Of a stretch of 64,000 bases of DNA, positions 40,656 through 47,076 are shown piece after piece; position 1 is the stretch's first letter; every line of letters begins with the position of its first letter. The notes under the pieces are model-generated. The model was not told where the DNA came from. It saw nothing but the letters and a program-made list of their open reading frames with translations, and did not search any database. The DNA is from Candidatus Oxydemutatoraceae bacterium (GTDB lineage: Bacteria; Pseudomonadota; Gammaproteobacteria; Poriferisulfidales; Oxydemutatoraceae): the NCBI GenBank assembly GCA_965219575.1, contig OZ244779.1:972769-1036768 (forward strand), in the 5' to 3' direction. The position numbers and the translations under genes are program-made.

Positions 40656-40861
40656 AATCGCCGATTGAGCCGGTAGGTCAATCGGCGTAACATTATGCAA
40701 AACCACGATGTAAAACGAAATGTAGGGGCGGACTAGCATGTCCGCCCGTAACGCGTTGCGCCTGCACGATTTATACATTCATTCACCCGATTTATGGAAA
40801 CCAAAACCATACGGCGCAAGTGGTTACAGTTGCACGCTGACGGTACTTTTTCAACAAACCC
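40656..40861. repeat. Repeat mosaic between trpC and the second ATPase
   Basis: CGCCGATTGAGCCGGTAGGTCAATCGGCG, REP GTAGGGGCGGACTAGCATGTCCGCCC, ATTTATGGAAACCAAAACCATACGGCGCAAG, TACTTTTTCAACAAACCC. Confidence 0.9.
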
Positions 40862-41987
40862 AGGTGCTTAAATTTTTCAAGAACCTTTCTACATTAAGAA
40901 TTTGAATGTCTTGATAGCTATAATCTTTCGGACCGGTGTAAAGAAACAGAAGGTCGCTTTCAGGGTAATCTTTCTTAAACTCGAGTAGTCCCTTAAAATC
41001 CTTTTGGTTAATCCTTTCTCGGCATTTTACTTCGATGGCCTTAAACCCTTTCTCCCCGTAGAGAATGAAATCCACTTCTAAATGTTTCCTCGTTCTCCAG
41101 TAGAAAATTTCGTAGCCTAATTGGTGAATTTCATTGTGTGCCGAAATTTCCTGCAAAACGAGGGTTTCTAGTGCAATTCCATTTAGATAAGAACTAGAAT
41201 CTAAAACGCCTTGCGGTCGTATCGCCCTGAACACACCCACATCAAAAAAATAAAACTTCCTTTTATTCATTAGAGCCCGTTTCGCTCTTTTTGAAAAAAT
41301 GGGAAGTTCATAAGATAAAAGAGTATCCCTTAAAATGGAGAAATAATTTTCCACGACTTTTGCCGACACATGGCAATCTCTCGCGATATTGGTCATGACA
41401 AGAGGAGAACCCTGAGCAAAGCTCGCACTTTCTAAAAAGCGACTGAAAGCGGGAAGACTTCGGGTTAATCCTTCTTGTTGGATTTCCTCTTTCAAGTAGA
41501 CTTCAATATAACTTTTTAGAAAAGCCTTCGGGTTTTCCGATGAGAATACTTTAGGTATATGACCTAACTCCAGAGAAGTTTTTAAGTCAAAGTCATCTTT
41601 TAACTCTGCTACGCTAAGGGGATACATGAGGCATCTTAAAGCCCTACCGGCAAGGAGGTTAGTTTGCTCTCTCTTTAGCTTTCTTGCACTTGAGCCGGTG
41701 AGAACAAAAAGAAGTTTCCTTGTTTCTATGAGCCTATGCACTTCATCTAAAAGAGCAGGAACTTTCTGAACCTCGTCAATAACAACCCATCCCGTATAGT
41801 CGGAGGGAATTTGTTGCGATAGCCTCTCGGGAGAGGCAAGGAAGCTCTGGTACAGGGAGGACTGGAGAAGGTCAAAAAAGAGGGCTTTTTTGTAGAAAGA
41901 CCTTATAAAATGAGTTTTTCCCACGCCTCTTGGACCGAAGAGAAAAAAACTAGATTTTTTGGGAGGAGTAAATAGCCTCTTATACAT
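40851..41987 (-). CDS. AAA_14 ATPase with DUF4143 and PD-(D/E)xK-like C-terminus, paralogue 2
   Basis: GPRGVGKT, VIDEVQK, TGSSARKL, KFYFFDVGV, EVDFIL..AIEVK. Confidence 0.88.
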   Translation of the reverse strand: MYKRLFTPPKKSSFFLFGPRGVGKTHFIRSFYKKALFFDLLQSSLYQSFLASPERLSQQIPSDYTGWVVIDEVQKVPALLDEVHRLIETRKLLFVLTGSSARKLKREQTNLLAGRALRCLMYPLSVAELKDDFDLKTSLELGHIPKVFSSENPKAFLKSYIEVYLKEEIQQEGLTRSLPAFSRFLESASFAQGSPLVMTNIARDCHVSAKVVENYFSILRDTLLSYELPIFSKRAKRALMNKRKFYFFDVGVFRAIRPQGVLDSSSYLNGIALETLVLQEISAHNEIHQLGYEIFYWRTRKHLEVDFILYGEKGFKAIEVKCRERINQKDFKGLLEFKKDYPESDLLFLYTGPKDYSYQDIQILNVERFLKNLSTWVC

Positions 41988-42270
41988 GGTTCTATTTTAG
42001 CGCAAAAAATAGAATAGTAAGGACACTTTTTTACTAAAAAATAGAGTTGTAAGGGCATTTATTTCCAAAATCCCTATAAGCCTTTGAATTTCAATGGAAA
42101 AAATCTCTCCAATATCAACGCTCAACCCAATGCTAAGAGAAGCTGCTGGAAAAGTATCCACGAGCCCTAGATAGTATGGATGACCAGCTTTGCTGAAAGT
42201 TGGTTAAACTTTCATTTTAGTTCCCCTCTTGGGAGGGGTTTAATTAACCACTAAACAAAGGAGGTCATCC

Positions 42271-42552
42271 ATGACTAGTATACTGTATGTTGGCATTGAT
42301 GTTGATGATAAGAGTTTCACTGCCACAGCCATTTCTAAACACAATAATTATCATTCCATTAAAACGCGTCCGGACTTTGCATCATTGCATAAGGCAATCA
42401 CCAAAATCGCTTTGCCGGATGAACAGATCAAAGTCTGTTATGAGGCGAGCTATTTAGGCTTTTCATTAAAGCGACAATTTGATGCTCTGGGCATTCACTG
42501 CACGCCGCACCGGTGGTTGAGTAAGCTCGCTAAGCAAGAGGCTGCCAGATAG
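42271..42552 (+). pseudogene. IS110-family transposase N-terminal (DEDD RuvC-like) fragment
   Basis: YVGIDVDDKSF and CYEASYLGFSL motifs, AGGAGG RBS; only 93 aa. Confidence 0.85.
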
Positions 42553-42800
42553 AGTTCTGAGAGACCGAGGGAGTTGAAGCTAAAGTCAATGACAAGTTCC
42601 GAACTTAGATGCCGTCCTAGAGTGTTCGCCCATAGTAAACTGCCATGCGTGGCAAGGCAACTGACCGTAGATTAAGGGGCACAGTTCATCCAATTGACTT
42701 ATCATATGGTAATGTGAAAACAGAGTACACGAATATGAGGTTGATAATACTGACTCATTAGTTGAGTACTTTAGCGGCACTTCGTTCTGTCTCTCATCGG
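42553..42800 (+). ncRNA. Putative bridge/seekRNA of the IS1111-like element
   Basis: Stems TGAGAGAC/GTCTCTCA, AAGTCAAT/ATTGACTT, AGAGTAC/GTACTTT; target matches GTTCGCCC (42624) and ACCGTAG (42664); junction matches ATATGAG (42733) and ATACTgaCTCAT (42747); boundaries approximate. Confidence 0.65.
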
Positions 42801-43402
42801 CATAGCATGATGCCGTTAACAAAGAGATAAAGCAGGTGCACGAAAGCCGCCACGGCAAGTGGCGCATACACATACATAAGGCATGCTTTAAGAGGGGTGG
42901 CGCATTGCTATCGCTCGCTCCTTGTTGGCATCATCTGTGCCGTCATTTAACCTTTGAGTTCTGGTGACTTTTGGGAATGTAGACTTCGGTAAAAATTTAA
43001 CTTGACAAGCTGGTCATCCATATGAGGGGCTTATATGTCCGCCCGAACACGCGTCGTGTTAGCATAAATAAAATCGTACGCCATCCAATTCATGAAACCA
43101 AAACCATCCAGCGCAAGCGGTTACGGCTTTACAGAACGGCACTTAAGGGCAGACATCAGAGTTGCCGATTGACCTACCGGCTCAATCGGCGGCTTTATAC
43201 TGCCCCTACAGGTGGTTTGGGTAATTAGGGGGCGCAAGCGGTTGGACTTGTGCAATGCCCGCACTTTTTCAACAGCCCCACGACACAACCACCCCATAAA
43301 AAGGCTTTACATTTTGTAAACATGTTAAATCTGCATAACATCACGCCGATTGAGCCAATAGTTTAATTAGAGATGATACAATTATCTTTTTATGAGGATG
43401 CA

Positions 43403-43684
43403 ATGGACAACAAAGATTTAGAAAAGTTAGCCAAGCTGGCTCGTTTGAAAATAGCAGACGGCGAACACGAAGCGTTGGTAAATTCCCTCAACGAGATATT
43501 GGGTTTTGTGGAACGTTTGAATACCGCGGAAATAGAAGACATAGTGCCGCTTTCTCATCCCTTGGATATGCATCAAAGGTTGCGGTCGGACGAGGTCGCA
43601 GAACCCGACGAGTCCGAGCGGTTGCAAGAAATTGCACCCGATTGGCACGATAGTTTCTATACCGTTCCCAAAGTATTGGATTAG
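43403..43684 (+). CDS. gatC: Asp/Glu-tRNA amidotransferase subunit C
   Basis: LAKLARL, PLSHPLD..LRSDEV, VPKVLD; GAGGA RBS before ATG 43403. Confidence 0.95.
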
Positions 43685-43691
43685 GATTTTA

Positions 43692-45152
43692 ATGCTGGGC
43701 TATACACTAACCGAACTTGCCCGAGGACTACGCAAGGGTGATTTTTCAAGCACCGAACTGACCCGTTTTTTTCTTGACCGCATTGAAAATCACAACGACA
43801 CCTTAAATGCGTTTATCACGGTGACCGCCGACCAAGCGTTGCAATGTGCCGAACTAGCCGATCGGCAATCGTACGACGAGCAAACCCACCCTTTACACGG
43901 CATCCCGTTTGCGCATAAAGATTTATTTTGCACTCGCGGTGTGCGTACCAGCTGTGCTTCCAGAATGCTCGATAATTTTATTGCCCCCTACGATGCAACC
44001 GTAACAACCAAATTAAAACAGCTTTGCATGCCGATGCTGGGCAAGACCAACATGGATGAATTCGCAATGGGTTCTTCGACCGAAACCGGTTTTTACGGTG
44101 CGGTGCATAATCCTTGGGACGAGGACTGCGTGCCGGGGGGTTCCTCAGGTGGATCGGCAGCGGCGGTTGCCGCCTCGTTGGCACCGTGTGCAACGGCAAC
44201 CGATACAGGAGGCTCCATCAGACAGCCGGCAGCATTTTGCGGCATCACCGGAATCAAACCCACCTACGGGCGAGTCTCGCGCTACGGCATGGTTGCTTAT
44301 GCTTCCAGTTTGGATCAAGCCGGCGTGTTGGCGCGCAGTGCCGAGGATTGTGCGTTATTGTTGCAAGCCATCGCCGGTTTTGACGAGAAAGATTCTACCA
44401 GCACTTCGCACCCGGTACCCGATTATGCACAGGCTTTGGGTGACGGACTCAAAGGTTTGCGTATCGGTGTGCCGCAGGAATATCTGTCCGAGGATTTGGC
44501 ACCGCAGATTGCCGACAATGTCGTTGAAGCGATAGCGGTATTCAAAGACCTGGGATGTGAGATTGTGGATTTGAATCTACCGGCACTGGATTATGCGGTA
44601 GCCGCCTACTATATCATTGCGCCGGCCGAATGTTCGTCTAATCTGGCGCGCTACGACGGGGTACGCTACGGCTATAGATGTAAGGACGCACACGATCTGT
44701 CGGATTTGTATACCCGTTCACGCGCCGAAGGTTTCGGAGACGAGACCAAGCGCCGTATTCTAATCGGCACCTATGTATTGTCGGCAGGTTATTACGATGC
44801 GTATTATTTGAAAGCGCAAAAGGTGCGGCGCCTAATCAGAGACGATTTTATGAACGCTTTGGAAAAAACCGATGCGTTAATCGCCCCGGTATCGCCGACC
44901 ACCGCATTTAAGATAGGAGAGAAAATCTCCGATCCGGTGACGATGTATTTATCCGACATCTATACGATTGCGGTGAACTTGGCAGGGGTGCCGGCGATTG
45001 CTTTGCCTTCCGGCTTTATCGACAATAAACCGTTGAGCGTACAATTAATAGGTAGACATTTCGACGAACTTACTTTGTTTAAGCTGGCGCATCGCTATCA
45101 ACAACAAACCGACTGGCATCGGACGATGCCCGAACACTATAAAAACGCATGA
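43692..45152 (+). CDS. gatA: Asp/Glu-tRNA amidotransferase subunit A
   Basis: [45 protein letters not shown]; start set at ATG 43692. Confidence 0.98.
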
Positions 45153-46594
45153 ATACCGATCATTGGCAAGCGACCATCGGTCTAGAAATACACATGCAGC
45201 TCAACACTCGTAGCAAGCTGTTCTCGGCTGCCGAAGTGCGTTACGGCGGCAAAGCGAATACGCGTACATGCATGATTGACGCGGCATTGCCCGGAGTATT
45301 GCCGGTTGCCAACGAGGCTGCAATAGATATGGCAATCGCTTTCGGCTTGGCGGTTGAAGGCAATATCGCTACCACCACCGTGTTTGCCCGCAAAAATTAT
45401 TTTTATCCGGATTTACCTAAGGGCTATCAGATTAGTCAATACGAAAACCCGATAGTTTCCGGGGGGCGCGTTCCGATTGAATTGGAGGACGGCAGCGTTC
45501 GCTATATCTTGTTGGAGCGCGCACATTTGGAAGAAGATGCCGGCAAGTTGATTCACGGCACCTACGGAGAACTCAGTTGTGTAGATCTAAATCGCGCCGG
45601 GACGGTCTTGATAGAAATAGTTTCAAAGCCGGTGATGACCAGTGCCGGTGAAGCGGTTGCGTATATGAAGCAAATACATGCGATAGGGTGTTACTTGGAC
45701 ATTTGCGACGGCAATATGCAGGAAGGTTCGCTGCGCTGCGATGCCAATGTGTCTATCCGAGCAAAAGGAGACGACAAACTGGGTGTTCGCACCGAGACCA
45801 AAAATCTAAACTCGTTCCGCTTTATAGAAAAAGCCATACTGTATGAGATCGATCGTCAGATCGAGGTACTGGAACACGGCGGACGGGTTGTGCAAGAAAC
45901 CCGACTATACGACCCGGCGTTGGATGAGACGCGGGTGCTACGCAGCAAAGAGGAGGCCGAAGACTATCGCTATTTTCCCGACCCCGACCTGTTGCCGCTA
46001 CGGTTGAGCGATGAACGGATTGAAGTGCTGCGCGAGCGTCTTCCGGAATTAAAACATAGCCGATGCCGAAGGTTTAGCGAAGACTACGGCTTGAGTAAAG
46101 ACGATGCCGAACAGCTGACCAAAACAAAAGCAACGGCGGATTATTTTGAACGATGTGTCGATCTATCCGCCGCCGAACCTAAATTAATTGCGAATTGGAT
46201 GACCACCCGGTTTGCCGCGCTGTTGAACCGAGATAAACTCGGTGTAGAAGACGCGCCTATAAGACCCGAGGACCTCGGCGAACTTTTAGACAACATAGCC
46301 GAGCAGAAGATATCCGCCAATAACGCAAAAGCCGTACTGGAAAAAATGTGGGCGGAAAAACGTTCTGCCGAAGATGTGATAGACGAACTGGGATTGGAAC
46401 AAATCGGCGATGACTCGCAACTCGACGACATCGTCGATGAAATACTACGGGATAATCCTGAACAAGTGCAACAATACCTCTCGGGTAAGGAGAAAGTATT
46501 TGCTTATTTTATCGGGCAAGCGATGAAAGCCAGCAAAGGGAAAGCCAACCCCGGCAAACTGTCCGAGTTATTCAAAGCGCGTCTCAAAATGTAG
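45149..46594 (+). CDS. gatB: Asp/Glu-tRNA amidotransferase subunit B
   Basis: [48 protein letters not shown]. Confidence 0.98.
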
Positions 46595-47076
46595 GGGCGG
46601 ACTGGCATGTCCGCCCTAAAGTTTAGTACTAGCACAAACCCAACCGCTTGCCACATAATTATAATAACCATTTGTAGGGACCGACCAACGTGACGTTGTT
46701 CAGACCTCGAAATTTGTAGGGGCGGACTAACATGTCCGCCCTAAAGTTTAGTACTAGCACAAACCCAACCGCTTGCCACATAATTATAATAACCATTTGT
46801 AGGGACCGACCAACGTGACGTTGTTCAGACCTCGAAATTTGTAGGGGCGGACTAACATGTCCGCCCTAAAGTTTAGTACTAGCACAAACCCAACCGCTTG
46901 CCACATAATTATAATAACCATTTGTAGGGACCGACCAACGTGACGTTGTTCAGACCTCGAAATTTGTAGGGGCGGACTAACATGTCCGCCCTAAAGTTTA
47001 GTACTAGCACAAACCCAACCGCTTGCGCCACATAATTATAATAACCATTTGTAGGGACAGAATGGTGCGCTCCTAC
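46591..47076 (+). repeat. 125-bp tandem repeat (~3.7 copies), each unit starting with a GTAG REP hairpin
   Basis: GTAGGGGCGGACT(G/A)(G/A)CATGTCCGCCC at 46591, 46716, 46841, 46966; units nearly identical. Confidence 0.97.

Follow-up and report, generated by a model that had tools for sequence, protein, structure and literature searches.

A probable fossil of an IS1111-type insertion sequence with a predicted guide RNA matching the REP of its Oxydemutatoraceae host

Introduction

Can a guide RNA still be read from an insertion sequence (IS) that has lost most of its transposase, and could such an element still move? The question is raised by a locus of Candidatus Oxydemutatoraceae bacterium (contig OZ244779.1, GCA_965219575.1), of which positions 972,769 to 1,036,768 were analysed; these 64,000 nt are called the window here, and coordinates count from its first letter. 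The host genome (G000) comprises 2.37 Mb in one contig with 47% G+C. A first-pass annotation of the window had described a transposase-dead IS110-family element of the IS1111 type, with a guide RNA encoded in its 3' non-coding region and directed at the dispersed repetitive extragenic palindromic sequence (REP) of the host, and had proposed that this element is mobilisable in trans and may drive REP-anchored rearrangements. The comparison with relatives reported here makes it very probable that the locus is the relic of an IS1111-type IS110-family element, that positions 42579–42775 encode its seekRNA (bridge RNA), and that the element is now an immobile fossil in which the guides are still legible (Table 1). 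As RNA-guided IS110/IS1111 recombinases are under development as programmable genome-writing tools, natural examples of retargeting are useful.

Identity of the element and its relatives

The native 77 residues of the truncated transposase are 96% identical to residues 1–77 of a 382-residue protein, P0001. Searched alone against Pfam, the 93-codon frame gave no match; P0001 carries PF01548 (DEDD_Tnp_IS110) and PF02371 (Transposase_20) and scores 176 bits with NCBIfam NF033542 (IS110 family RNA-guided transposase, cut-off 140), so that the full-length relatives have the domains that define the IS110 family. Four congeneric genomes were searched for copies of the element and three contained them: about five copies in G003, with DNA 92–96% identical to the window element, six in G004 (75–81%), and two fragments in G001. 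The full-length form is about 1.75 kb long. In two of the G003 copies (L024/L043 and L027/L031/L042) the left and right parts lie 3.2–4.2 kb apart, not 0.9 kb, the transposase match ends at residue 298, and something has been inserted. A search for a full-length transposase, which the first pass had suggested, succeeded in the congeners (P0001 and the copies there) and failed in the host genome, where tblastn with the full-length protein recovered the 77-residue stump only and no cognate transposase.

More distant kin, with proteins 35–47% identical, were taken from genome and metagenome collections, and 28 of them entered the structure tests below. The transposases of this clade have 368–382 residues and read G-F-S-I-S-E-Y-S-S-G where the IS1111 motif is G-L-x-P-x4-S/T-G, SG being retained and L and P replaced; among the plasmid-borne ISs searched, their nearest relatives are at most 35% identical.

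Target guides change together with the insertion sites

All strings quoted in the first-pass annotation are present in the window (AAGTCAAT at 42583–90, ATTGACTT at 42693–700, GTTCGCCC at 42624–31, ACCGTAG at 42664–70, AGAGTAC at 42722–28, GTACTTT at 42766–72, ATATGAG at 42733–39 and ATACTGACTCAT at 42747–58). Two of them had been read as target guides, GTTCGCCC as a 7/8 match to GTCCGCCC and ACCGTAG as an exact match, and both readings are correct against the host REP consensus, ..(A)CCG-TAG-GGGC(G/A)GAC-N6-GTC(C/T)GCCC.. Right of the core, the DNA word GTTCGCCC pairs with the top strand; guide 2, whose sequence is that of the top strand, pairs with the bottom one. With the commonest local REP, GGGCGGAC, guide 1 (GUUCGCCC) forms seven Watson–Crick pairs and one U.G pair, and guide 2 (ACCGUAG) stands opposite the local REP sequence ..CCGT-AG and, at the element's own site, the decayed flank GAGCCCT-AG.

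The 3' parts of 13 copies were aligned within the genus, and in this otherwise highly conserved region both target words shift together with the flanks. Copies of the G003 type combine a 5' guide AUCUGCCC with the right flank GGGCAGA and a 3' guide ACCGUAG with the left flank ..CCGT-AG, and the insertion reads ..CCGT-AG-(IS)-AG-GGGCAGA... Those of the G004/G001 type combine UCCGCCC with (G)GGCGGA and GCUUUAG with ..ACTTT-AG, and the G004 insertion reads ..ACTTT-AG-(IS)-AG-GGCGGAT.., at the other flank of the REP hairpin used by the G003 type. Natural reprogramming of the clade to the two sides of a single REP hairpin appears to have taken place. Within the genus, substitutions cluster only weakly in the guides (hypergeometric p 0.03–0.07), and this signal is not relied on.

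The distant kin share the ends of the element, from left flank (LF) to right flank (RF), as LF-AG-AAGAT-ATGGATGACC ... GGTCATCCAT-ATG-AG-RF, as well as an RNA scaffold that runs ..CC(A/U)CG, guide 1, UAG ... CCUG, guide 2 ending in AG, (A/G)U-N-(G/A)(U/A)GG ... A-N-CUU, AAUGCG-UUAACCAGCA-CGCGA and AUAUGAG. On this basis a family-wide test was carried out on 25 insertion sites from 14 lineages (one genome contributed two), confined to loci with both ends, in which the guides of each lineage were compared with its own flanks and with the flanks of all other lineages; guide 2 was read at the position set by the scaffold, whereas for guide 1 a fixed window of 54 nt was used and its best 7-mer taken. 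The mean match of guide 2 to five flank nucleotides was 3.46 for cognate and 1.56 for non-cognate flanks, and that of guide 1 to seven flank nucleotides 5.77 and 4.48, respectively. Both guides matched cognate flanks better than non-cognate ones in all 14 lineages, and in 100000 permutations the observed value was not reached once for either guide. The guide–target covariation that the first pass had named as a check was accordingly found, and it supports the claim that the 3' non-coding region encodes a guide RNA with target guides aimed at the host REP. At L057, L059, L060, L089 and L090 the right junction is AA, not AG, and guide 1 ends in UU, not CU, so that target and element need not have the same core dinucleotide. 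A 'handshake' extension of two nucleotides after each core, noticed by eye, fits the genus (AU against AT), is inconsistent in the distant kin, and was dropped.

Structure and conservation of the predicted RNA

All 26 proposed base pairs are kept in the eight distinct congener sequences, three of them with compensatory changes, two of which lie in the outer stem GCUAAAGU/ACUUUAGC. Pairing in the 28 distant kin amounts to 98% for the stem that flanks the target loop, where AU/UA/CG and CG/UA exchanges occur, to 82% for the hairpin between the two guides, where both partners have changed in three pairs, and to 99% for the donor hairpin, where both have changed in two pairs; the donor hairpin is part of a conserved motif that nhmmer detected in almost all distant kin. 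The covariation score of the whole structure is 0.211 vs 0.086 for shuffles (0 of 500 reach the observed score), and slid partners give at most 0.083. The two closing helices with which the first-pass annotation had bounded its domains (AAGTCAAT/ATTGACTT and AGAGTAC/GTACTTT) do occur in the minimum-energy fold of the window copy, but they are not conserved: they are 92.5% paired, with three pairs broken in three of eight congener sequences and no compensatory change.

Between the G003 and G004 types, divergence is 34% in the spacer before the RNA, 12.5% in the RNA, 21% in the stretch after it and 4% at the right end, so that among the non-coding blocks only the right end has diverged less than the RNA. 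A profile built from the distant kin, with the genus excluded, has one match in the host genome, at 42724–42751. An Rfam search of 41000–44000 gave no match, and the bridge/seek RNAs of this clade, which combines enzymes of the length given above with RNAs of 165–197 nt and a conserved UAAUGCG..GAAUAUGAG scaffold, are evidently absent from the Rfam library. Among RNA sequencing runs, none was listed as containing the stretch, which speaks neither for nor against transcription.

Donor guides

The first pass had also read ATATGAG as a donor guide, and the relatives bear this out: where the right end is ATACGAG or ATACGAA, the RNA reads AUACGAG (L057/59/60, L064, L087, L089/90 and L101). Three of its four guide matches hold up, as they exceed chance and covary across relatives; the fourth, the 10/12 match to the junction at 42747–58 (ATACTGACTCAT, ATACTgaCTCAT), does not, as it is a product of a 4-nt deletion unique to the window copy, where the congeners read ATACCGAACGACTCAT or ATCACGAACGACTCAT. 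An AUGAG/CUCAU hairpin considered as a second donor guide was rejected since it is paired in just 58.6% of cells across the 28 kin.

A short stretch upstream of AUAUGAG, just 5' of the donor hairpin in the distant kin, probably recognises the left end of the element, although in this genus it is a tentative candidate. In the G004 type the word AUUAUC is a 6/6 complement of the left-end GATAAT, and in the G003/G000 type CUUAUC forms four matches and one wobble with GATAGT. In the distant kin, the fourth base of the left extension is variable, and the A-N-CUU beside AAUG pairs with it in 13 of 16 lineages, the pairs being A-U in six, U-A in six and G-C in one.

Element anatomy and decay

In its anatomy the element is a member of the IS1111 group. 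The subterminal inverted repeats, 7–17 bp with short extensions in that group, are 13 nt long; the left one (42176–88) is the reverse complement of 43009–21, and the extensions outside them are AGATAGT on the left (core counted) and ATG on the right. The distant kin have an equivalent end layout, and repeats with extensions were found in 30 of 44 loci (right end placeable; both ends in most). A longer, RNA-encoding non-coding region follows the transposase gene, insertion is site-specific with a shared dinucleotide and no duplication, and guide 1, the complement of the top strand, is 5' of guide 2, the complement of the bottom strand, the order described for IS1111-type seekRNAs, in which the top-strand match is 5' of the bottom-strand match (PMC11187229). 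Guides covary with their partners, the target guides in 14 of 14 lineages and the right-end donor guide in one clade that changes both. If the ends are joined, TTGACA falls 18 nt before GATAGT (GATAAT in the G004 type), from which we infer an arrangement resembling the family's junction promoters. The first-pass assignment to a transposase-dead IS110-family, IS1111-type element stands, with 77 of 382 residues left and 13-nt subterminal repeats, as does its length of 858 bp with both AG cores included.

The alignment of the window to the full-length copy L021 (gene 381–1529, element end at 2046) skips from 611 to 1506, and in the alignment to a full-length G003 copy the frame is shifted at the deletion junction. 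Contigs of run X7 break at this junction and run on into full-length gene sequence. The original stop codon has been preserved, which leaves a native 3' non-coding region of about 500 nt up to the right end at 43026. Within the RNA, four changes are specific to the window copy, namely 42626 C to T, which lies in guide 1 and creates its U.G pair, 42706 G to A, 42751 C to T, and the 4-nt deletion. The stretch between the RNA and the right end contains several G+C-rich hairpins; in the distant kin the right end follows about 60–70 nt past the RNA, so most of this stretch is missing there.

The element occurs once in the host genome; of a second copy, a scrap of 50 bp from the left end remains (L002; G000:C1:203104-203153), which is 86% identical and follows the REP-like flank ..CCGCCCA-TAG. 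The neighbouring gene at 40851–41987 (minus strand) encodes an AAA ATPase with a DUF4143 domain; it sits at unrelated places in the congeners, and the neighbourhood of the relic has therefore been rearranged.

Table 1 Features of the relic in the window.
Feature	Position	Strand	Remarks
Whole IS relic, internally deleted, IS1111-type	42169..43026	+	858 bp with both AG cores; bounds of homology to full-length copies in congeners
Left AG core	42169..42170	+	AG at both junctions in every copy compared
Left end	42171..42188	+	5-nt extension ATAGT, then 13-nt subterminal inverted repeat ATGGATGACCAGC (42176–88)
Truncated transposase frame, 93 codons	42271..42552	+	Native part only 42271–42501 (77 residues)
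Deletion junction, CACTGC microhomology	42496..42501	+	895 bp of the transposase gene gone
Original transposase stop, TAA	42522..42524	+	P0001 C-terminus ..HAAPVVE read from sequence; native 3' non-coding region begins after it
Predicted seekRNA/bridge RNA, 197 nt	42579..42775	+	Closed by GCUAAAGU (42579–86) pairing with ACUUUAGC (42768–75)
Target-binding domain	42601..42687	+	Stems 42601–05/42683–87, 42611–13/42678–80 and 42616–18/42675–77; internal loop; distal hairpin 42641–54
Target guide 1	42624..42633	+	GUUCGCCC plus AU; complementary to top strand right of core
Target guide 2, ACCGUAG	42664..42670	+	Identical to top strand left of core plus core
Candidate left-end donor guide ACUUAUC, tentative	42697..42703	+	Overlaps a closing stem supposed in the first pass
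Donor-domain hairpin UGU-GAAA-ACA	42713..42722	+	U-A to C-G compensatory change in G003 copies
Donor guide AUAUGAG	42733..42739	+	Equals right end ATATG plus AG core; identical to 43020–43026
Second donor match of the first pass, ATACTGACTCAT	42747..42758	+	Not conserved
Extra non-coding stretch	42776..43001	+	About 225 nt between RNA and right end; only in elements of this genus
Right end	43002..43026	+	TTGACA 43002–07; subterminal repeat GCTGGTCATCCAT 43009–21; ATG; AG core 43025–26
Decayed right REP half-site	43027..43044	+	GGGC----TTATATGTCCGCCC, without the 4 nt GGAC; compared with 20 genomic copies of AGGGGCGGACTTATATGTCCGCCC

Insertion site and the host REP

The junctions of the relic are a decayed form of the G003 arrangement, ..CCGT-AG-(IS)-AG-GGGC.. 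On the left, GAGCCCT-AG stands where the REP has GAACCGT-AG, which includes a change of G to C, and there is no target duplication beyond the one shared dinucleotide AG. The core of IS621 is CT, and the core here is AG. An empty orthologous site was sought in the congeners and none was recovered; the ATPase gene on the left and gatC on the right lie far apart there, and the pre-insertion site is unreadable because the flanking genes are not syntenic.

REP-derived words are abundant in the host genome, with 268 occurrences of TAGGGGCGGAC, 80 of TAGGGGCAGAC, 63 of ACCGTAGGGGCGGAC, 538 of ACCGTAG and 127 of the uninterrupted REP CCGTAGGGGCGGAC. The guide does not simply follow the commonest REP variant, since the G003 genome holds 23 GTAGGGGCAGA vs 48 GTAGGGGCGGA. 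At 46590–47058 the window contains 3.7 tandem copies of a 125-bp unit (98% identity), each with a full REP hairpin (TGTAGGGGCGGAC..GTCCGCCCTAAAG), and similar REP arrays occur elsewhere in the host genome, e.g. around G000 470224-470996.

Seven other IS110-family transposases reside in the host genome (L003–L009), four of 336 and three of 326 residues. They represent two other element types, intact and about 81% alike in DNA, with different ends and without the ATGGATGACC repeat. Their right ends abut ..GTCCGCCCCTAC, and therefore lie inside the REP loop and not at the AG site. Because the two resident types occupy the loop, three element types exploit one REP family at different positions.

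Discussion

Taken as a relic of an IS1111-type element, the locus can be given the following mechanism. The first domain of the RNA would present an internal loop closed by conserved stems, the 3' side of which reads the top strand left of the site together with AG, and in the second domain AUAUGAG would recognise the right end of the element and AG. In intact relatives, by analogy with experiments on ISEc11, ISPa11, ISKpn4 and IS621, the transposase would bind this RNA, which would pair with both REP strands around AG as well as with the ends brought together in the circular element, and recombination at AG would insert the circle into the REP with no duplication. The window copy first lost 895 bp of its transposase gene; later, its RNA underwent three point changes and a 4-nt deletion, and the flanking REP a 4-nt deletion and a substitution.

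Several observations weigh against this interpretation. The RNA and its ends are drawn from comparison of sequences, and the single-sequence fold (-43 kcal/mol) has z = 0.01 vs shuffled sequence and hence no excess stability, so that the structural support is wholly comparative. Covariation of the right-end donor guide amounts to about one evolutionary event, as it concerns essentially one clade, and the left-end guide word of the genus lies a few bases upstream of the position in distant kin and is imperfect in the G003/G000 type. From the family-wide test, L050, L053 and L101 were dropped beforehand for flanks that were absent or too short, and L061/L072, L075 and L111 because the scaffold pattern failed; L061/L072 fits poorly, with a right end ATAGGAG vs AUAUGAG in the RNA and weak flank matches. 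The transposases of the clade exceed the 330–350 residues given for the IS1111 family in PMC11187229, and in intact copies an open frame of 108–141 codons overlaps the RNA.

An alternative close to the first-pass proposal is that the relic is a functional non-autonomous element, which provides its own guide RNA, is mobilised in trans and drives recombination between REPs. Both ends and the guides are present, 63 genomic sites ACCGTAGGGGCGGAC are on offer, mini-elements consisting of ends only moved when both transposase and seekRNA were given in trans (PMC11187229), and a MITE-like module (miniature inverted-repeat transposable element) is reported for ISPpu9 in PMC12288879. We nevertheless consider this unlikely. 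In the host genome tblastn finds the 77-residue fragment only, and the seven resident IS110-family transposases belong to types with different ends, no ATGGATGACC and a position in the REP loop. The flanks no longer match the guides, and altered flanks blocked circle formation in ISEc11 (PMC11187229). The RNA carries lesions specific to this copy, and there is one copy plus the 50-bp scrap, which differs from a MITE-like population of several dispersed copies with a resident competent transposase. The deleted form is found at this site in contigs of three studies, with zero differences over 41900–43059. Because the host genome holds no cognate transposase, the element is best regarded as an immobile fossil; the window copy is probably not active at present, and mobilisation in trans with REP-anchored rearrangement is unsupported speculation for this copy. 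If the RNA is still transcribed, it might serve as an 'address label' that loads onto a cognate transposase arriving horizontally and steers it to the dominant GGAC REP variant, or as a decoy that titrates the enzyme, an unlikely prospect; copies 93–96% identical exist in a congener.

It is very improbable that the short matches arose by chance or are captured REP debris with no guide function. Each match is just 7–8 nt long, REP-like words are common where the REP is so abundant (as the 538 occurrences of ACCGTAG illustrate), and the fold carries no thermodynamic signal. Against this, the same scaffold positions in other lineages hold words that match each lineage's own, non-REP flanks, the stems flanking the guides covary, and the region is the best conserved non-coding block except for the right end; chance and debris are excluded because the guide words of the distant kin are lineage-specific and not REP. 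A second protein-coding gene downstream of the transposase (about 42645 to 42967 in intact copies), suggested by a stop-free frame of 141 codons in G003 and 109 in G004/G001 in the same register with 68% identical products, is equally hard to credit and was rejected on codon statistics, since substitutions at codon positions 1/2/3 number 24/14/21 without codon-position bias, the differing codons are 11 synonymous and 34 non-synonymous with no sign of protein-level selection, there is no Pfam match, most of the stretch is missing in distant kin, and the frame begins within an RNA hairpin and is broken in the window copy.

With the relic of an IS1111-type element as the preferred reading, the interest of the locus lies in its relatives. 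Two sister elements from congeneric, uncultured sulfur oxidisers are distinguished chiefly by their guide words and occupy opposite sides of one REP hairpin, and about 13 independent lineages show the guide–target rule for a clade of longer enzymes. For the host genome the relic is ordinary, one more dead IS amid many REPs and two other live IS110-family types.

Comparison with known systems

The relic is a clear example of the mechanism described in 2024, not a new mechanism, and it adds to a known kind, because REP-targeting relatives (ISPa11, IS621 and ISPpu9/10) and the transposase-less MITEPpu9 have already been described. In the literature on orphan or non-autonomous bridge-RNA elements, the ISPpu9/MITEPpu9 work was the only relevant one among the matches listed.

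The closest likeness is to ISEc11, ISKpn4 and ISPa11 as presented in PMC11187229, with which the element shares subterminal repeats, a 7-nt left extension (core counted) and a 3-nt right extension, the long non-coding region 3' of the transposase gene, and the order of the guides. ISPa11, which targets the REP of Pseudomonas aeruginosa (Siddiquee et al. 2024, PMC11187229), is like it in having a REP target and no duplication past the shared dinucleotide, and the natural retargeting through changes in the guides only has a counterpart in ISEc11 vs ISXne4 from the same source. Unlike these elements as described there, those of the present clade have longer transposases in which G-L-x-P reads G-F-S-I..SG, and the window copy is a deletion derivative.

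With IS621, as reported by Durrant et al. (2024, PMC11208160), the predicted RNA has in common a single molecule with target-binding and donor-binding internal loops, each reading opposite strands on either side of the core dinucleotide, and a junction promoter formed by the joined ends, which here is a prediction from the sequence. In contrast to the IS621 of that report, the RNA sits downstream of the gene for the transposase, the guides are in reversed order, and the subterminal repeats are 13 nt long instead of 2–3 nt.

ISPpu9 of Pseudomonas putida is likewise an IS110-family element found at AG within REPs (PMC12288879). In MITEPpu9 the same account provides a module that persists in a genome without a transposase gene, as the relic does. 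Unlike the relic, MITEPpu9 is described there as multi-copy and as circularising with the resident transposase, and the small RNA, Ssr9, as dispensable for transposition, whereas the present genome has one decayed copy and no cognate transposase.

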